A stretch of DNA of 64,000 bases, from NCBI GenBank assembly GCA_020523885.1, contig JAJAPY010000008.1, forward strand, positions 20,872 through 84,871, read 5' to 3'. The notes beneath the pieces were generated by a model, which was given only the letters and a program-made list of their open reading frames with translations, was not told the DNA's origin and did not search any database. Positions 3,018-63,159 of the stretch are shown here, one piece after another. The position numbers were made by a program, and so were the translations under genes. Position 1 is the stretch's first letter. Each line of letters opens with the position of its first letter. The stretch comes from Candidatus Liberimonas magnetica (GTDB taxonomy: Bacteria > Elusimicrobiota > Endomicrobiia > Endomicrobiales > JAFGIL01).

Positions 3018-4181
3018 GTGCAGCAATTTATGGAAGCAGATGACAAAAAATCATGTTTGCCTGATACTGATAGAAGGCAAAAGGATATGCTTAGCAAAGA
3101 AAGGTTCAGCAAGTATTTTCTTTTAGGTGTATTTATCATTTCTTTGTTGATTTTTTTGTATATAATTAAAATATTTATTTTAGATATAACTCTTGCAGTA
3201 GTTTTAGCCACTTTTTTTTATCCTTTATTCAAAAACATTCTTCGTATTTTTAGAAATAAGCATGGGATCAGCGCTCTGTTAACATGCGTAATAATATTGC
3301 TTGTATTCTTGATACCATTAGTTATCATTTCAAATATAATAGTAATTCAAAGTAAAGAGTTTTATCATTTGTCCGCTCCTCAGATAAAAGAAATAATAGA
3401 ACGCAAGGTGGCTTTTTTTGCCAGGCTGCAGGAATCTGCTGTCGGGGATTTACTGTCGGATTATGGCTTCGATTGGCAGAATGAGCTAAATGACGTGATG
3501 AAGTTTATAGGCACACACATCGCTACTGTCGTAAATAAGACATCACAAAAAGCTTTCAAGATAATATTTGATCTATTTATAATCCTATTTGCCACATTTT
3601 ATTTTTTAAAAGACGGGCAAAGGATCCTGGTCAGGATAAAGAACAGCATACCGTTAAATGATGAGTACAAGGAAAATATTATTTCGAAGTTTTCATCTGT
3701 GTTGGATGCAACAGTTAAAGGTGTTTTTTTTATAGCCATATTGCAGAGTTCTTTGGCTACAGTAACCCTTTGGGCTTTCGGGATAAAAGCCTGGCTGTTA
3801 TGGGGAGGTGTGATGCTTGTGCTTTCCACCATACCTTTTGTGGGTACGGGTTTTGTACTGGTTCCTACCGGTATAATAAAAATAGTAAACGGCGATATAG
3901 GTTCCGGGATAGCTATTATCATAATAAGCTTATTTTTTATCTCATTGATAGATAATTTCATCAGGCCCCGTATAGTCGGCCATTATGCGGGAATGCACGA
4001 CCTGGTGACTTTTTTTGGCATAGTAGGGGGTATCAGCGTATTCGGCCCTGTCGGGATTATTATAGGCCCGATTATAATCGCGATATTTGTCACGATACTT
4101 GAAATATACAATATTGAATTTTATGAACATATAAATTACTCCAAGCGTAAAACAAACAAAAACGAAATCATTCCAAAATAA
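3018..4181 (+). CDS. AI-2E family transporter (PerM/UPF0118-like permease)
   Basis: Polytopic membrane ORF with the FATFYFLKDG motif typical of the family. The start may be the internal Met at 3087. Confidence 0.75.
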   Translation: MQQFMEADDKKSCLPDTDRRQKDMLSKERFSKYFLLGVFIISLLIFLYIIKIFILDITLAVVLATFFYPLFKNILRIFRNKHGISALLTCVIILLVFLIPLVIISNIIVIQSKEFYHLSAPQIKEIIERKVAFFARLQESAVGDLLSDYGFDWQNELNDVMKFIGTHIATVVNKTSQKAFKIIFDLFIILFATFYFLKDGQRILVRIKNSIPLNDEYKENIISKFSSVLDATVKGVFFIAILQSSLATVTLWAFGIKAWLLWGGVMLVLSTIPFVGTGFVLVPTGIIKIVNGDIGSGIAIIIISLFFISLIDNFIRPRIVGHYAGMHDLVTFFGIVGGISVFGPVGIIIGPIIIAIFVTILEIYNIEFYEHINYSKRKTNKNEIIPK

Positions 4182-4323: not shown

Positions 4324-5304
4324 ATGGACGCATGGGAAAAATTCAAAATAGCAATAAAAAAAGACGGCCTTGTGAATGAAGGAGACAGGATAATTTTAGC
4401 TGTCTCAGGCGGGCCGGATTCTGTTTGTCTGACGCACCTTTTCTGGAGGCTGGCAAAGGCCCTGGATTTAGAACTGGTGATCGTTTATTTTGACCACGGC
4501 TTGAGAGTACAGGCAAAGAAAGAAATATTTTTTATTAAAAAGTTAGGCGGAAAACTAAATATACCGGTACAAGTCCGGGTATTGAAAGTAAAAGAACATT
4601 CAAGCCAAAATAAAGTATCTATAGAGACCGCAGGCAGGGATCTGCGTTATCAGGAACTGGATAATGTCGCAAAGGAATTGAAGTTCAATAAAATCGTGAC
4701 AGGGCACAATGCAAATGACAATGCGGAAACTGTCCTTATGTGGCTGATCCGGGGGACCGGGGCAGAGGGACTCTCAGGTATACCTCCCAAGCGCAAAACA
4801 AAAGGGAACATTGAGGTTATCAGGCCGATTTTATCTGTAACAAGAAAAGAGATATTAACTTATCTCAAACGCCAGAAGATGTTTTTTTGCATAGACCGTT
4901 CAAATTTTGACATTGACTATACAAGAAATAAGATAAGGCACGAGCTTATCCCAATGTTAAACAAATATAATAGTAACGTAGTAGAGCATCTTTATAATCT
5001 TTCAAGAATAGTTTCCCGTGAAAATACGTATTTAAATATGCTTTCACAAAAGGCGCAAAAGAATCTGGTTTCGGTATCAAAAAACAAAATCTCACTTGAT
5101 TTAAAAGGATTTTTTGGATATAATAAGGCAATACAAAATCGAATTATAAAAAATATTTTGCCGCAGAAACGGTCGCAACTCCAAATTGAACGTTTAATGG
5201 ATTTTTTGTCCGCCCCTCATAAAAAAAATATTCATTTTTCCAGTAATTGGGAAATAGAGAAGTCCCCCGGGAAACTGGTAATAAAAAAGTTAGTGCAGGC
5301 ATAA
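4324..5304 (+). CDS. tilS: tRNA(Ile)-lysidine synthetase
   Basis: PP-loop SGGPDS (LAVSGGPDSVCL). Conserved tilS-hpt-ftsH order. Confidence 0.9.
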   Translation: MDAWEKFKIAIKKDGLVNEGDRIILAVSGGPDSVCLTHLFWRLAKALDLELVIVYFDHGLRVQAKKEIFFIKKLGGKLNIPVQVRVLKVKEHSSQNKVSIETAGRDLRYQELDNVAKELKFNKIVTGHNANDNAETVLMWLIRGTGAEGLSGIPPKRKTKGNIEVIRPILSVTRKEILTYLKRQKMFFCIDRSNFDIDYTRNKIRHELIPMLNKYNSNVVEHLYNLSRIVSRENTYLNMLSQKAQKNLVSVSKNKISLDLKGFFGYNKAIQNRIIKNILPQKRSQLQIERLMDFLSAPHKKNIHFSSNWEIEKSPGKLVIKKLVQA

Positions 5305-5858
5305 TGGCGAAAAACAAGAGCATAGAAGTTCTTTTAACCGCAGCACAAATCAAAAAAAGAGTAAAACTCCTTGCCAAAGAAATCTCGAGAGATTACAAAG
5401 GCGCAAAATTAACCGTAGTTCCGATACTTAAAGGAAGTATTTTATTTTTTTCTGACCTGTTAAGGAATCTGAAAGTTGATTGTGTGATAGATTTTATTTC
5501 GGTCTCTTCGTATAAAGCCGACAGATCAAAAGGCATAGTCAGGCTGTTAATGGATTTAAGGCAAAGCCCGCAAAATAAACATATATTGATCGTAGAAGAT
5601 ATAGTCGATACAGGGTACACGCTGGATTATCTTTGTAAGAATTTAAAGCAGAGGCGGCCGCTTTCTGTCAGAACCTGCGTACTTCTTGATAAACCTTCTT
5701 TAAGAAAAGTGCCCGTAAAGATCGATTATAAAGGGTTTAAAGTGCCGGATAAATTCGTTGTAGGCTACGGGCTAGATTACAAAGAAAAATATAGAAATTT
5801 ACCTTTTATAGGAATATTAAGGGAAATTAATTCGGAGGTTGTTAATAATGAAAGATAA
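5304..5858 (+). CDS. hpt: Hypoxanthine phosphoribosyltransferase
   Basis: PRPP-binding ILIVEDIVDTGYTL. ATG at 5304 overlaps the tilS stop (TAATG). The track ORF from 5247 is an upstream extension. Confidence 0.9.
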   Translation: MAKNKSIEVLLTAAQIKKRVKLLAKEISRDYKGAKLTVVPILKGSILFFSDLLRNLKVDCVIDFISVSSYKADRSKGIVRLLMDLRQSPQNKHILIVEDIVDTGYTLDYLCKNLKQRRPLSVRTCVLLDKPSLRKVPVKIDYKGFKVPDKFVVGYGLDYKEKYRNLPFIGILREINSEVVNNER

Positions 5859-7791
5859 GAATCGTTTAGGCCTGGTTGTCTGGATAGTGATTTTCGGCAT
5901 TTTACTTTATTTTATCCAATCTGTACGGAAAATGAACCTTGAGCAGGAACTCCCTTACTCAACTTTCAAGAAGTATTTAAAATCGAACCAGGTGCTTGAA
6001 GTTACGGTCGCAAATGAAATGATCAAAGGCAAATTCAAAGCTCCGGACGGGAAAACCTTAAATTTTAAAACAATTCCGCTTAATGATCCGAAACTCGTAG
6101 AGGAACTTGAATCATATAATGTTTCGCAGTTTTCAGGCACTATAGAGCGCAACTGGCTCATGGCTCTTCTTCTTAACTGGGGCCCTATGATACTCTTGAT
6201 CGCTTTTTGGCTTTGGATGATGAAAGGGATGCAGAGCGGCGGAAGGCAGGTAATGTCTTTCGGCAGGAGCAAGGCAAAACTGCAATCGTCTAAAAATATG
6301 AAGATAACTTTTGCCGATGTCGCGGGCTGCGACGAGCCTAAAGAGGAGTTAAAAGAGATCATTGAATTCTTAAAAGACCCCGCAAAATTCCAGAAACTTG
6401 GCGGAAAAATACCCAAAGGTGTACTGGTATACGGCGCTCCGGGCACTGGAAAAACCCTTTTAGCTAAAGCTGTCGCAGGAGAAGCGGGTGTGCCGTTTTT
6501 TTCATCAAGCGGGTCTGAGTTCGTGGAGATGTTCGTAGGAGTCGGTGCGTCCCGTGTAAGAGACCTTTTTGACCAGGGAAGAAGGAGCGCTCCGTGTTTG
6601 CTTTTTATCGATGAAATAGATGCCGTAGGAAGGCACCGTTTTGCCGGCATAGGCGGCGGGCATGACGAAAGAGAACAGACGCTTAATCAGCTCTTAGTTG
6701 AAATGGACGGGTTTGATACGAAAGAAGGGGTTATTTTAATAGCGGCCACGAACAGGCCCGATGTGCTTGACCCTGCATTACTTCGGCCAGGCCGGTTTGA
6801 CAGGCATATAGCTGTTCCTACGCCTGATCTAAGAGGAAGGGAAGAAATATTGAACGTACATACCCGCACAGTCAAAGTTGCCAAGGAAGTTGACTTGAAG
6901 GTAATAGCAAGGCGCACTCCAGGTTTTGTAGGTGCCGACATAGCGAATTTAGTAAATGAGGCTGCGCTCCTTGCTGCAAGAAAGAACCGGCCCAGTGCCA
7001 TAATGGAGGATTTTGAAGAAGCTATCGATAGGGTATTAGCAGGGCCTCAAAGGAAATCAAGGTTTATATCTGATTACGAGAAAAAAATAATAGCTTATCA
7101 TGAATCAGGCCATACGCTTGTAGCAAAGTTCACCCCGGGGGCTGACCCTGTTCATAAGGTCTCTATCATTTCAAGAGGCCCGGCTTTAGGCTACACTTTA
7201 CAGCTCCCGCTGGAAGACAGGTACCTGACCACCAAGAAAGAGATACTTTCAAGGCTTGCGGTTTTCCTCGGAGGCCGCGCTGCTGAACAGATGATGTTCA
7301 AGGAAATAACCACCGGTGCTCAAAACGACCTATCCAAGGCGACTGAAATGGCGATGAGAATGGTAGTAGAGTTCGGCATGAGCGATAAAATAGGCCCGGT
7401 GTCGCTTAAAAGACCGAATGAAGAAATATTCCTGGGCCGCGACATTTCGCGCGAGCCAAGGTTTTCAGATAAAACCTCGGAGATAATAGATGAAGAAGTA
7501 AAACGCATAGTTGAAGAGGCGGAAAAGCGGGCTGAAGACATATTAAAAAAACATAAAGATAAACTGCAGGCACTTGCAGAAAGGCTCATAGAAAAAGAGA
7601 TCCTGGACGGAGAAGAAGTCGAGCTCCTGGTAAACGGAAAAACAGAAAAAGCCGAAAAACAGGAGAAAACAGAAAAACCCGAGAATATCGACAAAGCCGA
7701 AAAACCCGAGCAAAAAAAGGAAGCCGTAAAAGAAGATAAAACTAAAAATATAAAGCAGGACGATAATACAACAGGAGACCTGTTCGGATAA
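5848..7791 (+). CDS. ftsH: ATP-dependent zinc metalloprotease FtsH with Lys/Glu-rich C-terminal tail
   Basis: Walker [17 protein letters not shown] zinc motif, and a repetitive [25 protein letters not shown] tail. Confidence 0.95.
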
Positions 7792-53965: not shown

Positions 53966-54022
53966 TTCTAACACTACAGTATTTGTGCAAAAGGGGACGT
54001 CCCCTAAGCCCCTGTGTTTTTT
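53966..54022 (-). repeat. Variant attC with 14-nt palindrome AGGGGACGTCCCCT
   Basis: Plus strand TTCTAACACTACAG...AGGGGACGTCCCCTAAGCCCCTGTGTTTTTT. AACAC/GTGTT outer pairing. Confidence 0.6.
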
Positions 54023-54676
54023 ATTAATCAGCTAATAGTATTTCTCTATCCCACCAAAGCCTATTTGCTTGTTTTCTTTTGTCTTTGCAATAAAATTTGT
54101 AAGTCTCTTTTGAAATTCTTCTGGGCGATTCCGCGCTGCTTCAATGTAAGCAATACGTATTCTTCTATATGAGTCGGAAAACCTGTGATAATTCTCCCAT
54201 GCCAAATGATCGCTTTTTATTGCATTAATTATATCTGGAGAGAAAATAAACTTCTCGTCAATAATCCTTTTCGCAATATCTAGTATTGATGGATGCAGTA
54301 AATTCTCCTTAAGAAGCCATTTTAACCTCTCTTTGTTAGCTTGTGAGTAACCACTCTTGGGGTTTCTTGGTGAGAATCTTTGTGCGCTACTATTTTCGCT
54401 AACAGATTTCAGTTGGCTATCAATCCAGCCGAAACACAAAGCTTCTTCCACAGCGTCGTTATATGATATACGCGGTTTTCCTGAAGACTTGTTTGGATAG
54501 ACCAGCCAGACCTCTTTCTCTTTACTAGAGTTTAGTTCAAGCCATGCACGCCAGTCTTTTCTGTTGACTACATACAGCGTTTTAAGTTTATCCACAATAA
54601 CAACCATTCTGCGTTAACTAACCTAACTCAGGCACAAAAAGCTATCGCTATTTTCTTTCCAACATCCGAAATCAGC
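53998..54676. repeat. 679-bp direct repeat, copy 1 (YdeI cassette)
   Basis: Offset of exactly 4046 bp to 58044-58722. The encoded proteins are identical. One mismatch seen (54009 C vs 58055 T). Confidence 0.85.
54032..54607 (-). CDS. YdeI/OmpD-associated family protein, copy 1 (cassette 12)
   Basis: WRAWLE...VWLVY...ISYNDAVEEALCFGWIDS...RFSPRNPKSGYS pattern. Confidence 0.75.
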   Translation of the reverse strand: MVVIVDKLKTLYVVNRKDWRAWLELNSSKEKEVWLVYPNKSSGKPRISYNDAVEEALCFGWIDSQLKSVSENSSAQRFSPRNPKSGYSQANKERLKWLLKENLLHPSILDIAKRIIDEKFIFSPDIINAIKSDHLAWENYHRFSDSYRRIRIAYIEAARNRPEEFQKRLTNFIAKTKENKQIGFGGIEKYY

Positions 54677-54830: not shown

Positions 54831-55079
54831 TTATAAGGCAACTTTATGCAGTATCTCAGATATAAACGTTTGATATTTAACGCCTATATTTCTTGCTTTT
54901 TGTTTTATGCTTTCAAGGTCATGACTATTAATTCTTATGTTTAATACCGAATCTTTCTTTCTTCTGGCTATAGCTTGCGAGATAACATGAAAATCTTGCT
55001 TGTTGACAGGAGTATAAGTTCCTTCTAAAAGGTCTTTTTCAATTTCTTTTTCTTGTAAATTTAATTTTATTCTTTTCAT
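54831..55079 (-). CDS. CopG/BrnA-like antitoxin (cassette 10)
   Basis: C-terminal RHH-like IRINSHDLESIKQKARNIGVKYQTFISEILHK. 4-nt overlap with the toxin gene. Confidence 0.65.
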   Translation of the reverse strand: MKRIKLNLQEKEIEKDLLEGTYTPVNKQDFHVISQAIARRKKDSVLNIRINSHDLESIKQKARNIGVKYQTFISEILHKVAL

Positions 55080-55333
55080 TTGTTTGCTCCTTTAAATATT
55101 TTGGTATATTTTCTACTGGGGTAAAGAGTTTTGAGAAAATAGTAGTTTTCTTCTTCTACAAAAGGGACTACCCATATGTATTTTTTATATTCAAACAGCA
55201 TTATCTTTTGGTTCTCTTTGATCGGATGTCTCAATATGTTAATAAGCTTTGAATTAACTAACTCATCAAAAGAAACGCCTCTGGTTTTTATTAATCTTTC
55301 ATTTTTAAGCAAGTTCCAGCGAAGTTCTTTCAT
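55076..55333 (-). CDS. BrnT-like (DUF497-related) toxin (cassette 10)
   Basis: KNERLIKTRGVSFDEL ... VVPFV ... FLKTLYPSRK pattern. Confidence 0.55.
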   Translation of the reverse strand: MKELRWNLLKNERLIKTRGVSFDELVNSKLINILRHPIKENQKIMLFEYKKYIWVVPFVEEENYYFLKTLYPSRKYTKIFKGANK

Positions 55334-56060: not shown

Positions 56061-56273
56061 TTAAGCAGCCCATTTGAATAGAAGTTTTTTGTGCGAATGA
56101 GCACATTCGCTAAGATACAAATTAATTAAATTTTGGTATGGCATTCCATACTCATTTGCTAAACCCTTGAAATAACTAATGGTTTCATGGTCAAGACGAA
56201 TGGTAATTTGTTTTTTCAGTTTTTTGAAGTATGGATTCTTTGTTGCATTGCTAAAATCGTATTGTTTATTCAT
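56061..56273 (-). CDS. brnA: BrnA antitoxin (cassette 8)
   Basis: ITIRLDHETISYFKGLANEYGMPYQNLINLYL pattern. 4-nt overlap with brnT. Confidence 0.75.
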   Translation of the reverse strand: MNKQYDFSNATKNPYFKKLKKQITIRLDHETISYFKGLANEYGMPYQNLINLYLSECAHSHKKLLFKWAA

Positions 56274-56563
56274 GACAATTTCTCCTTATATTGTTTTTGT
56301 TCTTTTTTGTTTGCTTTTCTAGCTGAAATAATTCTAATTATCTCATCATCTTTTCTATAGCAATGGCAAACAACTAACAATCGTAAAATACGGCTTACGC
56401 CAAGCATAATAAAACGGTCTTCATGGTCAGAATGTGATGGATCATGTATCAATAAAGCATTGGGGTCATAAAATATTGTTTTTGCTTCTTCAAAAGATAT
56501 TCCATGTTTCTTTTTATTGCTATTATCTTTTTTCTTGTCCCATTCAAATTCAATGTGCTTCAT
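56270..56563 (-). CDS. brnT: BrnT toxin (DUF497) (cassette 8)
   Basis: FEWDKKKDNSNKKKHGISFEEAKTIFYDP ... IRIISARKANKKEQKQY. Confidence 0.8.
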   Translation of the reverse strand: MKHIEFEWDKKKDNSNKKKHGISFEEAKTIFYDPNALLIHDPSHSDHEDRFIMLGVSRILRLLVVCHCYRKDDEIIRIISARKANKKEQKQYKEKLS

Positions 56564-56598: not shown

Positions 56599-56659
56599 GT
56601 CTAACATCCGAAATAAGCTACTCGACCTGAAGGGGAGGGTCAGCTGTATTGTGTTAAAT
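56599..56659 (-). repeat. attC
   Basis: GTCTAACATCCGAAATAAGCTACTCGACC...GGGAGGGTCAGCTGTATTGTGTTAAAT. The stop of the upstream ORF lies in the core. Confidence 0.75.
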
Positions 56660-57370
56660 ATCAGTTTCTTTTGATTTTATAAATTCATAAAATTGATAAC
56701 TAAAACTTGTGTATGCAAAACCAGTACCTAAATCCTGGCTTTTTCTATATTCTCCAAGCTCGTATTTATACCATTCTGTTGTAGAACTAAATATTCCTAA
56801 GGATTTCATTTCTTCTATGGCAGAATCAACTAAATAGGGCTCAAAGACATTTTTCAAATTATTTATTATTCTACGTTTATCAATTTGTACAGGTTGGCAA
56901 GAGCTTTTATTAAGATATTTTATTAATGGTTCTCTATAAACTTTATCAATTTCTATTAAAACTAATACAGCAGAACAAGACATGTTTCTTAGAATATCAA
57001 TAAATTTCAATTTTTTCATAATTGGTATCTTTTTATTATTAATGCCGTTTATCAGTGCGTTTACAAATAATTCTTGCTTTTCTTCTATTTGTGCATCCAT
57101 CGCAGAAGCAAAGATTTTATTTACAAATAAGTTGCCATCCTTAGTTTTTAACCATTTGTCACATAATAATTTCTTTACATCGGCAACTTTTAATTCTAAA
57201 TGATTTGTAAATGTTTTAGCATTTCTATCAAATACGTGTTTTTTAAATACATCATAGCCCAATACTATTGGTAATAAAATAGGATATTCCGATAGCAATA
57301 CTGTCCTTGAAACAGTTTTTAAAGAATTAAAGAGACTTTTTGTTTGTTTTGTTATTTTTAGTTTTGTCAT
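56654..57370 (-). CDS. Hypothetical protein, possibly Abi_alpha/DUF4393-like (cassette 7)
   Basis: ATG at 57370, just outside the attC. FASAMDAQIEEKQELFVNALINGIN ... FIDILRNMSCSAVLVL resembles the DUF4393 pattern. Confidence 0.35.
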   Translation of the reverse strand: MTKLKITKQTKSLFNSLKTVSRTVLLSEYPILLPIVLGYDVFKKHVFDRNAKTFTNHLELKVADVKKLLCDKWLKTKDGNLFVNKIFASAMDAQIEEKQELFVNALINGINNKKIPIMKKLKFIDILRNMSCSAVLVLIEIDKVYREPLIKYLNKSSCQPVQIDKRRIINNLKNVFEPYLVDSAIEEMKSLGIFSSTTEWYKYELGEYRKSQDLGTGFAYTSFSYQFYEFIKSKETDI

Positions 57371-57371
57371 T

Positions 57372-57434
57372 TCTTTACATAAAAAATCAGCGGATTTTGC
57401 CGAAGGCAAATTCCGCTGTATTGATTTGTTATCT
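57372..57434 (-). repeat. attC
   Basis: TCTTTACATAAAAAATCAGCGGATTTTGCC-GAA-GGCAAATTCCGCTGTATTGATTTGTTATCT. Confidence 0.8.
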
Positions 57435-57436
57435 TT

Positions 57437-57700
57437 TTATTTGCCTAATAGTCGTTCGTATTCGGAATGTGAACCAATCCAAAACCAAATAATACCTTCT
57501 TTCTCTGGAATACTAACACCTAATGCTCTTATATACAAGCTTGAACGTACTGACCAATATTTACCAATTCGTTTTAGTCGTAATGAAGGATGTTTAGGAT
57601 TATTTTTAAGAAGTTCAAAACTTGTGTTTGCAGAGTTTTTTTCTGTTGCAGATAGCTTGATATAAAATTCCCAGAATGCCGGTGACGTGAAATGTTTCAT
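57437..57700 (-). CDS. RelE/ParE-superfamily toxin (cassette 6)
   Basis: NPKHPSLRLKRIGKYWSVR...RALGV...WFWIGSHSEYERLL pattern. ATGA overlap with the antitoxin stop. Confidence 0.6.
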   Translation of the reverse strand: MKHFTSPAFWEFYIKLSATEKNSANTSFELLKNNPKHPSLRLKRIGKYWSVRSSLYIRALGVSIPEKEGIIWFWIGSHSEYERLLGK

Positions 57701-57894
57701 AATTCTTTGCATTTCCCTGCTTTGTAAGTATTCAATGCTTTTTCTGCAATTTGGTCCAATTTGCCTTTTGAAACATCTACTTCAATTTCTTTATCCCATT
57801 TATCTTCTTCGATTTTATGGAACCATTCTGATAAGGAAATTAATTCCTTTTCTTCAAGATGTTCAATTGCATTTTTAATTTCATTAATTGTCAT
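57697..57894 (-). CDS. Addiction-module antitoxin component (cassette 6)
   Basis: MTINEIKNAIEHLEEKELISLSEWF... small acidic helical protein. Start trimmed to Met 57894. Confidence 0.55.
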   Translation of the reverse strand: MTINEIKNAIEHLEEKELISLSEWFHKIEEDKWDKEIEVDVSKGKLDQIAEKALNTYKAGKCKEL

Positions 57895-57956
57895 AATAAC
57901 CTCCGAACATATAACATATTTCGTTATAAGTATAATCAATAATTATTTAATTTTCA

Positions 57957-58043: not shown

Positions 58044-58722
58044 CGTCCCCTAAGTCCCTGTGTTTTTTATTAATCAGCTAATAGTATTTCTCTATCCCAC
58101 CAAAGCCTATTTGCTTGTTTTCTTTTGTCTTTGCAATAAAATTTGTAAGTCTCTTTTGAAATTCTTCTGGGCGATTCCGCGCTGCTTCAATGTAAGCAAT
58201 ACGTATTCTTCTATATGAGTCGGAAAACCTGTGATAATTCTCCCATGCCAAATGATCGCTTTTTATTGCATTAATTATATCTGGAGAGAAAATAAACTTC
58301 TCGTCAATAATCCTTTTCGCAATATCTAGTATTGATGGATGCAGTAAATTCTCCTTAAGAAGCCATTTTAACCTCTCTTTGTTAGCTTGTGAGTAACCAC
58401 TCTTGGGGTTTCTTGGTGAGAATCTTTGTGCGCTACTATTTTCGCTAACAGATTTCAGTTGGCTATCAATCCAGCCGAAACACAAAGCTTCTTCCACAGC
58501 GTCGTTATATGATATACGCGGTTTTCCTGAAGACTTGTTTGGATAGACCAGCCAGACCTCTTTCTCTTTACTAGAGTTTAGTTCAAGCCATGCACGCCAG
58601 TCTTTTCTGTTGACTACATACAGCGTTTTAAGTTTATCCACAATAACAACCATTCTGCGTTAACTAACCTAACTCAGGCACAAAAAGCTATCGCTATTTT
58701 CTTTCCAACATCCGAAATCAGC
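58044..58722. repeat. 679-bp direct repeat, copy 2 (YdeI cassette)
   Basis: See 53998-54676. Confidence 0.85.
58078..58653 (-). CDS. YdeI/OmpD-associated family protein, copy 2 (cassette 5)
   Basis: The 191-aa product is identical to 54032-54607. Confidence 0.75.
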   Translation of the reverse strand: MVVIVDKLKTLYVVNRKDWRAWLELNSSKEKEVWLVYPNKSSGKPRISYNDAVEEALCFGWIDSQLKSVSENSSAQRFSPRNPKSGYSQANKERLKWLLKENLLHPSILDIAKRIIDEKFIFSPDIINAIKSDHLAWENYHRFSDSYRRIRIAYIEAARNRPEEFQKRLTNFIAKTKENKQIGFGGIEKYY

Positions 58723-58766
58723 TGCCCGACCCGAAGGGGCGGGTCAGCTGGATTGATTTGTTAGAT
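58703..58766 (-). repeat. attC
   Basis: TTCCAACATCCGAAATCAGCTGCCCGACCC-GAAG-GGGCGGGTCAGCTGGATTGATTTGTTAGAT. Confidence 0.8.
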
Positions 58767-58769
58767 GTT

Positions 58770-59396
58770 TTATTGGTTTCTTAAAATAAAATCTTGTATA
58801 CCTTGATACATAATTTTTACCTGCTCTAAAGTATATTCGTTAAAACAACCATGTGCTGCCTTATTTCTTAAGTCTAACCAGCTTGTTATTGATTTTTGGT
58901 CCAGTTTAGAGTAAGCATTAGCTTTATACAGTTCTGCATTCATTGTATCTGCTTTTATGGGTTTATCATTTTGTGTTGTTGGAATATTGTTTGTGCTACA
59001 TAATAACCTAAGTTTTTCTTCTAATACTGCACCGACAATAACAGCCGCAGGGTCTTTGTAACTATTGTCTATTAAATACTGGGACATTTCTAAAAAATCA
59101 GTAAATATATCTCCTTGAACTATTGTTTCAACTGTTTTTAAATATCCAGCTTCATAGTCTGCTCGCAAAGCTTTTAAAGCACCAACAATAAATGCTGGAC
59201 TAAATTCTATTTGACTTCTGTATGGCGATCCTTTTGGAGCTATTCTCGTTAGGCATGATGTTAATCTTACTCTTACCTCTGTTTTAACAGCATCCTCTAA
59301 ATCAGAAAGATCATCATATTTTGCTTTTTTCCTATACTCTTCATAAAAAAGTAATAATGAACTAATTTCATCAATAATCTTCTTTGCATTTATCAT
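58770..59396 (-). CDS. HEPN-domain protein (DUF4145-like C-terminus) (cassette 4)
   Basis: C-terminal PAAVIVGAVLEEKLRLL ... WLDLRNKAAHG (R-x4-H). About 110-aa helical N-domain. Confidence 0.55.
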   Translation of the reverse strand: MINAKKIIDEISSLLLFYEEYRKKAKYDDLSDLEDAVKTEVRVRLTSCLTRIAPKGSPYRSQIEFSPAFIVGALKALRADYEAGYLKTVETIVQGDIFTDFLEMSQYLIDNSYKDPAAVIVGAVLEEKLRLLCSTNNIPTTQNDKPIKADTMNAELYKANAYSKLDQKSITSWLDLRNKAAHGCFNEYTLEQVKIMYQGIQDFILRNQ

Positions 59397-59407
59397 TTTA
59401 ATTCCTC

Positions 59408-59465
59408 ATCTAACATCCAAGCTCAGCGGCGCCGGAACGGCGTCCGCTGTAGCGTTTTGTTAAAC
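59408..59465 (-). repeat. attC
   Basis: ATCTAACATCCAAGCTCAGCGGCGCCG-GAA-CGGCGTCCGCTGTAGCGTTTTGTTAAAC. Confidence 0.8.
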
Positions 59466-59489
59466 TCTTTTAGCCCAATTAACGAAAAT

Positions 59490-60098
59490 CTACTTTTGTT
59501 CACTAGGATTAATAATATCTAATACTTTAAATTCTGTATATTTTAGTTTTTCTACTTTTTCGGGTTTGTTTGATGTTAATAATAAATTATAATAATTTAA
59601 TGTAATTATATCATTAGGTTCAATAAACTCATACGGCAAATCAACTGTTACCATATACTTATTGTCTTTAGTAAAATATATAAACCTTCCAGTAGGTTCA
59701 AGTTCTATCGTTTTTTCTTTAATAAGATCATAATAAGCTAATGTTTCTATTTTTAGTTTTCCACCATAGGTAAAATGCTGTGAAAATAAAAAGTATCCTT
59801 TTTTATCTAGTGTTTCAAAAGCATCATGATATATAAGATAGCTATCCTTAAATTCTTCGTGTATTTTGTCATTTTCATAAATATTGTACTTTCTATATAC
59901 CATTGGATAATATTCTTTTCTATGTTTCTCCTTTGTGTTTCCATTCCATATAATTTCATAATCGATTATTAATGGTTTTACATCATTTAAATTTACATTA
60001 GGATGATTAATTTTAGTAACTTGTCCACCAATTATTGAATCAGCCGATATAAAATGCACATTAAATAAAATTACCAAAAAGGTGATAAATATTCTCAT
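59490..60098 (-). CDS. Secreted protein, unknown function (cassette 3)
   Basis: Signal peptide MRIFITFLVILFNVHFISA. No family recognised. Confidence 0.6.
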   Translation of the reverse strand: MRIFITFLVILFNVHFISADSIIGGQVTKINHPNVNLNDVKPLIIDYEIIWNGNTKEKHRKEYYPMVYRKYNIYENDKIHEEFKDSYLIYHDAFETLDKKGYFLFSQHFTYGGKLKIETLAYYDLIKEKTIELEPTGRFIYFTKDNKYMVTVDLPYEFIEPNDIITLNYYNLLLTSNKPEKVEKLKYTEFKVLDIINPSEQK

Positions 60099-60125
60099 AT
60101 TCTTTCTTTCTCCATTTTTTCATTT

Positions 60126-60195
60126 GTTTAACATCCGAAATCAGCGGTTTTGGCACGCGCAGCGTGACAAAATCCGCTGGATTGACTTGTTAGAA
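60126..60195 (-). repeat. attC, longest at 70 nt
   Basis: GTTTAACATCCGAAATCAGCGGTTTTGGCACGCGCAGCGTGACAAAATCCGCTGGATTGACTTGTTAGAA. Confidence 0.8.
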
Positions 60196-60275
60196 TATTT
60201 ATTGCTTTTTAAGCTAAACTAATCAACTAACCCCGCCCACTATTATTTAAGGTTTCGAATTAAACAAAACTTATT

Positions 60276-60800
60276 TCACATTTCTCTGCCGTATATAAGG
60301 GTATCGTAAGGATTTGTATCAAGTTTTCCCATAGATCGTTTATAGGCTATACAAGCGGAAGGAGAGTTGAATTGTTTATGAATAACAACATACTTGTTTT
60401 GTCCATTTGTATCCATAAAAGCATAAGTTGGCTTTGCGTTGGTGTTAGTATTATAGGATAGTAATGCTATTTTGGTTTGATAGCGATTATTTGTTACTGG
60501 ATAATTTTCAAAGCTATCTTTTATTGTATATAAATGTGTATAAGTTATGGTTGTTGGAGCTTTTATCCAAGAATCGTAAGCTGTTTGTGTGGATTTAATT
60601 ACTATATATACTTCTATTAAATCTGTATTTTTATCGAATCCTTTTGATAAATAAAATTCAAATGGATTTGCGTCTGCATATCCTGAAAATGTTTCTGAAT
60701 AAGCTACGGACGGAATCCCTTTTTCACCATCTTTACCTTTCAACTGGTCGCACCCACAGAAAACCATTGAACAAATCACAATAGCCCAAAAATACCGCAT
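60276..60800 (-). CDS. Probable lipoprotein/exported protein, unknown function (cassette 2)
   Basis: MRYFWAIVICSMVFCGC leader. ATG at 60800. Confidence 0.55.
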   Translation of the reverse strand: MRYFWAIVICSMVFCGCDQLKGKDGEKGIPSVAYSETFSGYADANPFEFYLSKGFDKNTDLIEVYIVIKSTQTAYDSWIKAPTTITYTHLYTIKDSFENYPVTNNRYQTKIALLSYNTNTNAKPTYAFMDTNGQNKYVVIHKQFNSPSACIAYKRSMGKLDTNPYDTLIYGREM

Positions 60801-60815
60801 TTTTTCTCCTCCTTT

Positions 60816-60879
60816 TTCTAACATCCGAAATCAGCGGCCCGACCCGCAGGGGAGGGTCAGCTGGATTGACTTGTTATAT
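60816..60879 (-). repeat. attC
   Basis: TTCTAACATCCGAAATCAGCGGCCCGACCC-GCAG-GGGAGGGTCAGCTGGATTGACTTGTTATAT. Confidence 0.8.
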
Positions 60880-60888
60880 TGGTAGTAT

Positions 60889-61614
60889 TTATGACAAATC
60901 TCTGTATAAAATATGTAATACTTCCAGTGCTATTTTGGCTTCCTCGGTGTCAAATGTTAACTTGTCTCGAATTTCTCGCCCAGGATGTACTAAATTACGG
61001 TATTCACGTAAAGAGTGTGACAATTTTTCAATTCCTGAACTTACTAATTTTAAATCTACGCTGACATTTATTAAATCTGAAAAATCCCATTTTGTGATAT
61101 CAGGCTTATTAGGTGCTTGTGATGAACTCTTTGCCGATGATTCATTAACCAAGAGTAGGTCCATTAATATTGCTTCTATTGAGCCACCCGAAAGTATAAT
61201 GACTGATTTCCAGCACTCTGATACATAAGCTCTTTGTATTTCTAAATAATCTCTTTCAAGTATTTTTCTTAGTTCTGTATTACTAATGAAAGAAAATTCT
61301 TTTAATTCAGTTATTGGAGTTTGAGTAGGTTCGTCAATCGCTACTTTTAATCTTGATATGGCAGTTGATAGATACGAACGAACCCCGGTACGGTTGTATA
61401 TTAGATTTCCAGCTTCGTCAACTTTGTAATACTCTTGAGGGTTAAATGATGGTAATAATTTGGGGAACGAACTATCGATTTCCTTTAATTCTTTAATTAG
61501 AACATTAGCAGGATAAGCAGAAATATAAATACCTCTTTCTTCTTCAATAACTTTTTGCTGCCCTAGAAGAGAATGATAATATTGTCGCAATTGTTTTAAT
61601 TCAATTTTGGTCAT
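60889..61614 (-). CDS. HEPN-like protein (cassette 1, attI-proximal)
   Basis: C-terminal CWKSVIILSGGSIEAILMDLL ... LSHSLREYRNLVHPG (R-x6-H / RN..H). AGGAG RBS 7 nt upstream. Confidence 0.5.
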   Translation of the reverse strand: MTKIELKQLRQYYHSLLGQQKVIEEERGIYISAYPANVLIKELKEIDSSFPKLLPSFNPQEYYKVDEAGNLIYNRTGVRSYLSTAISRLKVAIDEPTQTPITELKEFSFISNTELRKILERDYLEIQRAYVSECWKSVIILSGGSIEAILMDLLLVNESSAKSSSQAPNKPDITKWDFSDLINVSVDLKLVSSGIEKLSHSLREYRNLVHPGREIRDKLTFDTEEAKIALEVLHILYRDLS

Positions 61615-61630
61615 TAAATTCTCCTTTGCT

Positions 61631-61646
61631 ATATAACAGTTATTAT
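61631..61646 (-). other. Candidate attI simple site (ATATAAC-A-GTTATTA; minus strand G|TTATAT core)
   Basis: Imperfect palindrome 17 nt upstream of the first cassette ATG. Same GTTATAT core as attC 60873-60879. Confidence 0.45.
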
Positions 61647-61688
61647 ACGTAATGCCTGTTTATTTTTTGTTTCGACCTTTATAGCGGT

Positions 61689-61717
61689 ATTTTACTATTT
61701 TAAATAAGTAAATGCAA
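61689..61717 (-). promoter_or_regulatory. Candidate cassette promoter Pc, TTGCAT-17-TAAAAT (minus strand)
   Basis: -35 at 61712-61717 and -10 at 61689-61694, reverse-complement reading. Confidence 0.4.
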
Positions 61718-61745
61718 AGAATTATTACATTAGTAATAAATACAT

Positions 61746-61775
61746 TTGACAACAACTGGATAAATAACATACAAT
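61746..61775 (+). promoter_or_regulatory. Candidate PintI, TTGACA-18-TACAAT
   Basis: -35 at 61746-61751 and -10 at 61770-61775, about 55 nt upstream of the intI ATG. Confidence 0.45.
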
Positions 61776-61830
61776 AGCACAAAATACGAAACGCTGGATA
61801 TTGAATATATTTAATAAATCGAGGTTTTTT

Positions 61831-63159
61831 ATGGACAAAACAATTTTGCCGGAATTTCAGGCGTTTTTGTTGTTAAAAAGGCTTGTGAAAGAAAAAAGTG
61901 TGAGTTATTATGCGTCTTGGGTAAGCAAATTCATTGGATTTTCTAACACAAATGAAAAACTTAATGATACAGGAAGCATAGATTCTTTGATAGGCGAGTT
62001 TATAAGCTCTCTTGGCAACGGGAACAAAATTGAAGAGTGGCAGTTGCAGCAGGCAAGGGACGCAGTAAATCTGTATATCAACAATTATCTCAAAGGTGAC
62101 ACTTCAAGCGTCCTGCCAAACAGAACGCTTGAAATGCTGCATGCTGCTATGGATTATTCAGGTGTACTTAACCGCATGAAAACTGCTTTAGAAGTAAAAC
62201 ACTACGCTTATAAAACGGAACGGTCGTACCTGGACTGGGCTAAAAGATTTTTTGAGTATGTATCTAAAACAAACAGAAAAGATGCGGCAATCAGCGCGAT
62301 AAGCCAGAATGATGTAAAGGACTATTTAACCCATTTGGCGCTGCATCATAAAGTTGCCGCTTCGACACAAAACCAGGCTTTTAACGCTCTTCTTTTTCTT
62401 TTAAAAAACGTGCTTGATGCGGACACAAACGATCTTGCTAAAACTGTGCGCGCCAAACGCGGCCCAAAACTTCCTGTTGTGTTGAGTGTTGAAGAGGTGC
62501 AGAAGCTGCTTGACGGGATGGAAGGGGAAAACAAGCTTATAGCCCAGCTTCTGTATGGTGCTGGCTTGAGGCTTATGGAAGTAGCGCGCTTAAGGGTAAA
62601 AGACATTGATTTTTCATCGAATTTGCTGTTTGTGCGTAGTGCCAAGGGTGATAAAGACAGAACAACTGTTTTGCCGGGAATGATTAAGGAAGACTTGCAG
62701 CTGCAACTTCAAAAAGTGAAAGAGCTGCATGAGAAAGATATCGCGCTAGGGCACGGTGAGGTTTATATGCCCGATGCCTTAAGCAGAAAATATCCCAATG
62801 CAGGGAAAACCATTGGCTGGCAGTATGTGTTTCCGGCAGCAAAGCTTTCGGTTGATCCGCGCTCCGCTAAGGTGAGGCGTCATCATATTGGCGAAAAATC
62901 AATCCAAATTGCAATTCAAAAAGCAGTCAGGAATGCAGGTATTGTTAAACCCGCCTCTGTGCACACCCTGCGCCACAGCTTTGCAACGCATCTATTGTTG
63001 AACGGAACTAACGTTCGCCAGATACAAGACCTGCTTGGACATAAACACCTTGAAACAACTATGATATACACCCATGTTGTACGCAACATGTACAATGCTC
63101 CACAAAGCCCGCTGGATGTGCTGCAGAATAAATTAAAAAGTGAAAATAAACAAAGTTAA
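61831..63159 (+). CDS. intI: Integron integrase with extended N-terminus (two SAM-like N-domains)
   Basis: Collinear with IntI1 through ALSRKYPNAGKTIGWQYVFPAAKLSVDPRSAKVRRHHI (IntI-specific segment), HTLRHSFATHLL and LLGHKHLETTMIYTHV. ATG at 61831 behind GAGG. Confidence 0.9.
   Translation: MDKTILPEFQAFLLLKRLVKEKSVSYYASWVSKFIGFSNTNEKLNDTGSIDSLIGEFISSLGNGNKIEEWQLQQARDAVNLYINNYLKGDTSSVLPNRTLEMLHAAMDYSGVLNRMKTALEVKHYAYKTERSYLDWAKRFFEYVSKTNRKDAAISAISQNDVKDYLTHLALHHKVAASTQNQAFNALLFLLKNVLDADTNDLAKTVRAKRGPKLPVVLSVEEVQKLLDGMEGENKLIAQLLYGAGLRLMEVARLRVKDIDFSSNLLFVRSAKGDKDRTTVLPGMIKEDLQLQLQKVKELHEKDIALGHGEVYMPDALSRKYPNAGKTIGWQYVFPAAKLSVDPRSAKVRRHHIGEKSIQIAIQKAVRNAGIVKPASVHTLRHSFATHLLLNGTNVRQIQDLLGHKHLETTMIYTHVVRNMYNAPQSPLDVLQNKLKSENKQS

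Follow-up and report, generated by a model that had tools for sequence, protein, structure and literature searches.

The window analysed here is a 64,000-nucleotide stretch of the Candidatus Liberimonas magnetica genome (assembly GCA_020523885.1, contig JAJAPY010000008.1, positions 20,872 to 84,871), and the gene of interest within it, at 58770-59396 on the minus strand, occupies the fourth cassette of an integron and encodes what is very probably a HEPN-fold protein with a catalytic-type site. The open reading frame (ORF) specifies 208 amino acids, starts at an ATG at 59396 that is preceded at a distance of 6 nt by a GAGGA Shine-Dalgarno sequence, and ends in TAA. The gene had earlier been flagged by a model that saw the letters of the window and a list of ORF translations and made no database searches, and this account is referred to below as the sequence-only reading. 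The gene and its parts are as follows.

58770..59396, minus strand: solo HEPN-family protein gene, the sole gene of cassette 4 (ORF, start codon, Shine-Dalgarno sequence, homologues and conservation)
59112..59396, minus strand: predicted N-terminal family-specific helical module, approximately residues 1-95 (AlphaFold2 model and conservation)
58773..59111, minus strand: HEPN domain, approximately residues 96-208 (PF18735 match at residues 96-204, AlphaFold2 and Foldseek)
58851..58868, minus strand: codons of the Rx4H catalytic-type motif, R177-N-K-A-A-H182 (sequence; R177, N178 and H182 invariant)

The AlphaFold2 model computed from the family alignment is all-helical with a mean predicted local distance difference test score (pLDDT) of 92, its helices spanning residues 4-22, 35-52, 67-83, 85-110, 114-135, 149-158, 164-181 and 190-206. 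The last four of these form the HEPN core, into which a short beta hairpin is inserted at 141-146, and the first three together with the start of helix 85-110 make up the N-terminal module, which also carries a YDDLSDL loop and an RxAP motif (consensus RLAP). As modelled, the product is a stand-alone member of the HEPN superfamily in which a family-specific N-terminal module of three to four helices is fused to a C-terminal HEPN four-helix core. The module had no match in Pfam, NCBIfam, PADLOC or PHROG, and the 208-residue protein as a whole had none in NCBIfam.

The HEPN motif has been defined as Rx4-6H with a polar residue following the arginine, situated where helix 3 ends (PMC3710099). In the predicted structure R177 stands at the end of helix 164-181, the third of the core, H182 is the first residue past it, the polar N178 follows the arginine, and the motif is conserved in the family. 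Alignment with 34 homologues sharing 45-62% identity with the query showed R177, N178 and H182 to be invariant, as are E126, R130, K164, D166, K168 and W173; the N-terminal part has an invariant R51 and G72 and a YDDLSDL loop that hardly varies, D32, P54 and S57 being conserved alongside R51. The two peptides quoted in the sequence-only reading, residues 116-132 (PAAVIVGAVLEEKLRLL) and 172-183 (SWLDLRNKAAHG), had been read there as ending in a clean Rx4H motif of HEPN type, and this has held up well, since both R177 and H182, on whose conservation that reading had staked its claim, are kept in every one of the 34 homologues. A loose Rx4H-type string is common by itself, occurring in 14-17% of the ORFs of the fetched loci; the one found here is meaningful because it is invariant in homologues, because it lies at a helix end, and because the best matches in the PDB are HEPN proteins.

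Foldseek comparison of the model with the PDB returned HEPN proteins as its meaningful matches, namely AF0298 (2hsb), YutE (1ylm), 2q00, TM0613 (1o3u) and the HepT toxins 5yep, 6m6u and 7bxo. The match to 2hsb had a TM-score of 0.75 on the target, a root-mean-square deviation of 3.0 over 115 columns and a probability of 1.0, and the predicted structure displays the four-helix up-and-down bundle of the superfamily, with weak E-values (0.07 or worse) for the matches. Against viral predicted structures nothing meaningful was obtained. A search of PDB chains with the family profile yielded an annexin match only (E 0.077), which we rejected as spurious, and no HEPN structure.

Among Pfam models the protein had a single match, to PF18735 (HEPN_RiboL-PSP), with residues 96-204 aligned to model positions 93-182 at E 9.9e-5 and 22.8 bits. 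The same model is matched, weakly, by 27 of the 34 relatives, and its cutoff is reached by one (P0068) of ten relatives examined, whose scores lie between 24 and 29.5 bits; hhalign of the family profile with a bona fide 168-residue PF18735 protein, one encoded beside a family member, gave no alignment. We conclude that the C-terminal part of roughly 110 residues is very probably a HEPN domain, and that the family stands, unnamed, at the margin of the HEPN clan; by profile comparison it is nearest to RiboL-PSP-HEPN without qualifying as a member and is not DUF4145. The label "DUF4145-like" given in the sequence-only reading is not supported, as Pfam DUF4145 had no match at E<=1 in the protein, was weakly matched by 2 of the 34 relatives (best E 0.0057), and yields to PF18735 as the nearest model.

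The cassette status of the gene is defined by the following features.

61801..63159, plus strand: integron integrase IntI, 452 amino acids, divergent from the cassette array (TIGR02249 and Pfam)
59408..59465, minus strand: attC of the preceding cassette (covariance model, 67.6 bits, E 3e-11)
58703..58766, minus strand: attC of cassette 4 (covariance model, 78 bits, E 1.6e-13)

IntI matches TIGR02249 with E 8.5e-122 and 406 bits (cutoff 265), along with Phage_integrase and Phage_int_SAM_4 of Pfam. All ORFs from about 52.4 kb to 61.6 kb run opposite to it, and between them lie attC-type imperfect palindromes of 55-70 nt. A covariance model built from 12 attC sites of the array regains 12 of 12 at E 1e-8 to 1e-13, scores which express consistency within the array and not independent detection, the model having been trained on the same sites. 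Read from the sequence, the 5' boundary of cassette 4 is set by the R' core GTTAGAT (59414-59408) belonging to the attC before it, so that the cassette begins at 59413 and leaves a 17-nt leader before the ATG; at the other end R'' (ATCTAAC) lies 3 nt past the stop codon and R' (GTTGGAA) occupies 58709-58703. Cassette 4 accordingly runs from 59413 to 58709, measures 705 bp, holds one gene with no space for a second, and takes fourth place counting from attI, from which it is separated by the attC sites 60816-60879, 60126-60195 and 59408-59465. With attC sites bearing R'' and R' cores at both ends and the array beside an integrase, the single-gene cassette of the sequence-only reading is borne out as an integron cassette. 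The integron is sedentary and chromosomal. Consensus scans for promoters and terminators over 58600-61900 gave background level only.

The same array includes a second, different HEPN-like cassette, as the sequence-only reading had recognised.

60889..61614, minus strand: cassette 1, the other HEPN-like gene (REYRNLVHPG), of a different family (homologue search, profile and model comparison)

The cassette-1 family comprises 492 matches of about 240 amino acids, conserved over their full length, with an invariant R206-N207-x2-H210-P-G; its Pfam likeness is to DUF4145 only, weakly and in 8 of 26 members, and Foldseek with the cassette-1 model gave no convincing match in the PDB. Aligned by hhalign, the two families reached a probability of 9%, the aligned part being the first HEPN helix and the next loop only. 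Comparison of the two folds, which is made at the level of secondary structure, sets an alpha/beta N-terminal module in cassette 1 (strands 30-32, 63-65 and 71-74) against the all-helical one of cassette 4 (helices 4-22, 35-52, 67-83 and 85-110 in the AlphaFold2 model). The earlier statement that the N-terminal part of the cassette 4 protein is helical and unrelated to that of cassette 1 is therefore upheld, no similarity having been detected. The "same two-domain architecture" ascribed to both survives as a loose scheme, an N-terminal module followed by a C-terminal HEPN-like core, and fails in its stricter sense, for the N-terminal fold classes differ and the cassette 4 module belongs to a fixed unit and is not a swapped domain. 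As the families hardly align and each has hundreds of homologues elsewhere, the two cassettes are best regarded as independent captures from separate large families, and not, as had been suggested, as the diversification of one functional class in place.

The extent of the cassette 4 family is considerable. A word-indexed search retrieved 561 proteins with E<=1e-3, and among the best 120 nearly all were of 208-245 amino acids, most of them aligning with 95-100% of the query. When 1.84 billion representatives of clusters at 50% identity were searched exhaustively with the family profile, 4647 matched at E<=1e-3, among them 1062 with E<=1e-30, and the best 150 were almost all of about 220 amino acids and matched at full length. 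Because the homologues are of this length and align throughout, the N-terminal part and the HEPN core constitute a fixed unit. The family, of about 220 residues, is large, unnamed, uncharacterised, fixed in architecture and scattered across many phyla.

In a scan of the genomes of 185,579 species 348 relatives were found (about 0.2%), distributed among Acidobacteriota, Chloroflexota, Planctomycetota, Pseudomonadota, Bacteroidota, Omnitrophota, Bacillota, Actinomycetota and others. The genome of the window has one copy, and of 40 relatives sampled from its order a single one has a copy. Clustering of the ORFs within 2.5 kb at 80 loci disclosed no conserved neighbour gene, the small recurrent groups being housekeeping synteny. 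Genes of about 700 residues that recur upstream in four Acidobacteriota loci were set aside as molybdopterin oxidoreductases, a matter of lineage synteny and not of partnership.

Relatives recur as integron cassettes. One Myxococcota locus (L014) is a cassette with attC on both sides and IntI 4 kb away; two further loci (L004 and L035) have attC on both flanks, three (L018, L057 and L011) have attC directly past the stop codon, and L032 is counted on the integrase alone, which lies within about 2.5 kb of the gene. Cassette-borne relatives number at least 8 of the 80 loci, which is a rough minimum. A generic detector of attC sites, based on AAC...GTT cores and hairpin energy, was discarded as unspecific in GC-rich loci, where it gave 240 matches against 270 in reversed-sequence controls, and only sites at gene ends and covariance-model matches were counted for that reason. 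In the Myxococcota metagenome-assembled genome (MAG) that holds L014 (L002/L014, JANQOX010000019.1, 1776-12669) the integrase lies upstream on the cassette strand and is transcribed towards the array, whereas that of the window has the usual divergent layout. The closest genomic relative (L003), at 60% identity, sits in an Omnitrophota MAG (JAQTVG010000138.1, 385-1729) in a two-gene cassette, its HEPN gene (385-1005) being followed after 3 nt by a 214-residue ORF (1009-1653) and an attC (1656-1729). The second ORF has an N-terminal transmembrane helix and a C-terminal CNSAVHG with weak DUF4145 likeness (E 0.35) and without the motif arginine.

Other mobile or defence-like settings were also encountered. 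A 62%-identical relative on a Logan contig (SRR25013139, 2759-3858; L084) belongs to a prophage-like element with Phage_rep_O, helix-turn-helix (HTH) repressors and a large serine recombinase, and the beginning of its ORF shares 4 nt with the end of a gene of the staphylococcal-nuclease (SNase) family, which suggests a co-transcribed pair of DNase and RNase. Relatives that share 34.5% identity along 90% of the protein reside on the 6.5-kb Acinetobacter baumannii plasmid NZ_CP133710.1 and 21 other Acinetobacter plasmids, small Rep_3 replicons on which the gene, named "HEPN domain-containing protein" by PGAP, stands beside a RelE/ParE-HTH pair and a 133-residue orphan gene and may be dif-module cargo; homologues of the gene upstream of the Acinetobacter relative were absent from all other loci and from the window. 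On a Hymenobacter plasmid the relative is found beside a NACHT gene, a recombinase and an insertion sequence, and at one further locus (L089) beside GmrSD_N and another HEPN protein.

A second HEPN-type gene near the family member is a feature of several loci, for which only profile-confirmed cases were used, since ORFs near the family member match the loose Rx4H expression no more often (14%) than distant ones do (17%). A DUF4145 gene (58 bits) lies 115 nt upstream at L010 and the bona fide PF18735 gene (64 bits) mentioned above 208 nt upstream at L025; L082 (Streptomyces sp. GC420, 6001-7331) has two tandem paralogues 12 nt apart, the downstream one matching the family profile at an hhalign probability of 100% and 39% identity; and at L089 a protein matching PF18737 and PF18735 is encoded two genes upstream. 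We read this adjacency as clustering of conflict genes, as the partner varies by locus and most loci have none.

Two of these arrangements merit description on their own account. In an Ignavibacteriae MAG (L054, 4423-6639) the family member (5983-6639) directly follows a HEPN gene like that of cassette 1, which a stop seems to have split (4523-5404 and 5479-5766, with YRNYVHPG), and each of the two genes is preceded by the same element of about 40 nt, TTGCAA(A/G)TAATAACAAAT(A/T)TGATTATGTTTG, which resembles a duplicated promoter of the Bacteroidota type; no attC sites were seen at this locus. In genome G007, of the same order as the genome of the window, three HEPN-like genes are clustered (L090, 1501-3652): the family member (1501-2172, ADIRNNADHG), a transmembrane protein (2221-2925) ending in NYRNLVIHG, and, on the other strand, a DUF4145-like gene (3320-3625, IIGNWGAH).

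Elsewhere in the array of the window, positions 53998-54297 and 58044-58343 form an exact duplicate of at least 300 nt spanning an OmdA/YdeI-like cassette, with identical 191-residue ORFs at 54032-54607 and 58078-58653, of which the second is the cassette directly downstream of cassette 4. The 251-residue cassette protein at 56654-57409 (minus strand) has a sub-threshold Abi_alpha match (PF14337, 26.4 bits, cutoff 29) and, going by that likeness, is a possible further abortive-infection cassette. Three cassettes on the minus strand (54831-55333, 56061-56563 and 57437-57939) each contain a pair of small ORFs that overlap or abut, as in toxin-antitoxin (TA) modules, and the N-terminus of one of their proteins may resemble toxins of the BrnT type.

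Several characterised or described systems offer points of comparison. PF18735, described as "Ribo L-PSP-HEPN" and predicted to comprise active RNases that are distant kin of AbiD/AbiF (PMC3710099), is the best and essentially the sole profile match, covering the HEPN core and the R-N-x3-H helix; the cassette 4 protein departs from it in having an N-terminal module outside the model, in its score below the cutoff and in the failure of hhalign to align a true member. The endoRNase L-PSP fusions and ParB operon contexts of PF18735 were seen neither in cassette 4 nor in the annotated contexts, and no neighbour recurs in the 80 loci. DUF4145 (PF13643) shares the HEPN clan and a similar C-terminal motif helix, and NCBI calls one relative a "DUF4145 domain-containing protein", but it is the weak best match of the cassette-1 family (8 of 26) and not of the cassette 4 protein. 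The closest solved folds to the C-terminal half are those of HepT/MntA type II/VII toxins and minimal HEPN domains (AF0298 2hsb, YutE 1ylm, SO_3166 5yep; TM-score up to 0.75, probability 0.9-1.0), with which a common Rx4H RNase logic is shared; compared with these the protein is some 80-95 residues longer at the N-terminus, with an identity of 8-16%. It does not belong to a HEPN-MNT pair as judged by its surroundings, there being no adjacent gene for an MNT-type nucleotidyltransferase, unrelated neighbouring cassettes and no recurrent neighbour at the 80 loci.

Functionally the best model is HepS ("HEPN solo"), an abortive-infection protein encoded by the Gifsy-1 prophage; it is a latent oligomer activated by a phage protein and acts as an anticodon nuclease (PMC13043305). 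Like HepS, the cassette 4 protein is a single small HEPN protein with the canonical Rx4-6H and no partner gene, carried on a mobile element; the carrier is a prophage in the one case and an integron cassette in the other, and the likeness drawn is one of organisation and motif. DARNA is likewise a solo HEPN defence (bioRxiv 10.64898/2026.02.22.705581). Esos and Taranis, HEPN-bearing cassettes of the Vibrio cholerae chromosomal integron, have been shown experimentally to protect against phage (bioRxiv 10.1101/2024.07.02.601686), and resemble cassette 4, by description and not by sequence comparison, as single-gene integron cassettes with a HEPN-like domain in a different host lineage. The "integron cassette HEPN" family (PDB 3jrt), for which a role as stress RNases was proposed (PMC3710099), was absent both from the profile search of PDB sequences and from the top 50 Foldseek matches, which makes the cassette 4 protein a different HEPN family. 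Integrons with broadly similar HEPN cassettes have been described before, and what is new here is a well-delimited member of a large uncharacterised family.

By analogy with these enzymes the product of cassette 4 is, on balance, probably a latent RNase toxin or defence effector; anti-phage defence in particular we put at slightly less than an even chance. In such a scheme, two HEPN cores would pair so that their two Rx4H motifs form one composite, metal-independent endoribonuclease site, as in characterised HEPN enzymes. The enzyme would be made constitutively at low level through read-through from the integron promoter and kept latent by an autoinhibited oligomer, by the N-terminal module, or by both. 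A trigger derived from phage or stress would then provoke the cleavage of cellular RNA, for which tRNA anticodon loops or mRNA are the usual targets, with growth arrest or abortive infection as the outcome. What we show is the gene, its cassette, the family, the invariant motif and the predicted fold; that the protein is an RNase, dimerises, stays latent, answers to a trigger and serves in defence we infer from characterised HEPN enzymes.

A number of observations weigh against this interpretation. All profile and structural matches are weak, the PF18735 score of 22.8 bits falling below the gathering cutoff of 28.4 and the Foldseek E-values being 0.07 or worse, and a sequence search of PDB chains with the single protein gave no match. 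PADLOC-DB 2.0 (AbiD/F/J/U/V, PD-T7-3, PD-T7-4 and others) had no match at E<=1, in a library that predates HepS, Esos and Taranis; PHROGs had none either, nor had tblastn against 50,697 phage records. Many family members stand alone among ordinary or housekeeping genes, which neither supports nor excludes defence, and the harmlessness of an RNase toxin without an antitoxin is assumed by analogy.

Among the alternatives, the protein could be an addiction or stabilisation toxin that steadies the array and has no anti-phage role, its antitoxin being encoded elsewhere (for instance an MNT-type nucleotidyltransferase) or not being a protein at all (for instance an RNA, as reported for AbiF). We consider this unlikely, notwithstanding that the closest HEPN structures include HepT toxins of HEPN-MNT pairs, that the array has the three TA-like two-gene cassettes listed above (54831-55333, 56061-56563 and 57437-57939), that the Acinetobacter plasmid relatives adjoin a RelE/ParE-HTH pair, and that, according to the DARNA preprint, RNA antitoxins or covalent modification can restrain HEPN proteins (bioRxiv 10.64898/2026.02.22.705581). 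The cassette is of one gene, with a 17-nt leader too short for a tandem-repeat or RNA-antitoxin-like sequence and with 3 nt from stop to attC; the 80 loci have no conserved neighbour, the gene upstream of the Acinetobacter relative has no homologue in the other loci or the window, and no MNT gene is adjacent, although a partner in trans is possible as no genome-wide MNT search was made. Little weight is given, too, to a non-defence protein of RNA metabolism or stress, that is, a HEPN RNase or non-catalytic binder that tunes translation or induces dormancy. Integron HEPN cassettes have indeed been proposed as dormancy-inducing stress-response RNases (Anantharaman et al. 2013, PMC3710099), and several members lie amid housekeeping genes with neither mobile nor defence neighbours; yet a gene that only about 0.2% of the species genomes and one of the 40 relatives possess, and that recurs on cassettes, plasmids and a prophage-like element, has a sporadic and mobile pattern that fits accessory conflict genes and not core RNA metabolism, and the invariant RNxxxH speaks against a purely binding role.

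The companion HEPN genes raise the further prospect of a paired system in which a second, different HEPN protein, here possibly that of cassette 1, regulates the first or completes a composite active site. Such genes near the family member in L010, L025, L082, L089, L054, L090 and L003 and the two HEPN cassettes of the window are in keeping with it, but the partner family changes between loci, a neighbour of this sort is missing from the majority of the 80 loci and no family of neighbours is conserved, the two genes of the window are in separate cassettes with two unrelated ones between, and clustering of defence genes accounts for the adjacency without any interaction, so that we hold the pairing to be very improbable. 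A long shot of comparable kind is that the protein is a hitherto undescribed single-protein immune sensor-effector, whose N-terminal module with its YDDLSDL loop would detect a phage trigger, and which would also enter mixed assemblies with a second, unrelated HEPN protein, here that of cassette 1; such assemblies would explain the second HEPN gene beside family members in some 7-9 of about 86 loci examined.

Overall, we present a latent RNase toxin or defence effector as the probable identity of the cassette 4 product, at a time when sedentary chromosomal integrons have come to be viewed as reservoirs of small anti-phage systems, many of them encoded by one gene, and solo HEPN RNases as an emerging class of self-contained sensor-effectors. 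With 705 bp, one gene and clear catalytic-type residues, the cassette is a cheap candidate for screening. The family it represents, more than 4,600 clusters at 50% identity, is carried by integron cassettes, plasmids and prophage-like elements, and a role in defence or toxicity, if true, would leave current ideas unchallenged and would give an annotation to thousands of "hypothetical proteins".

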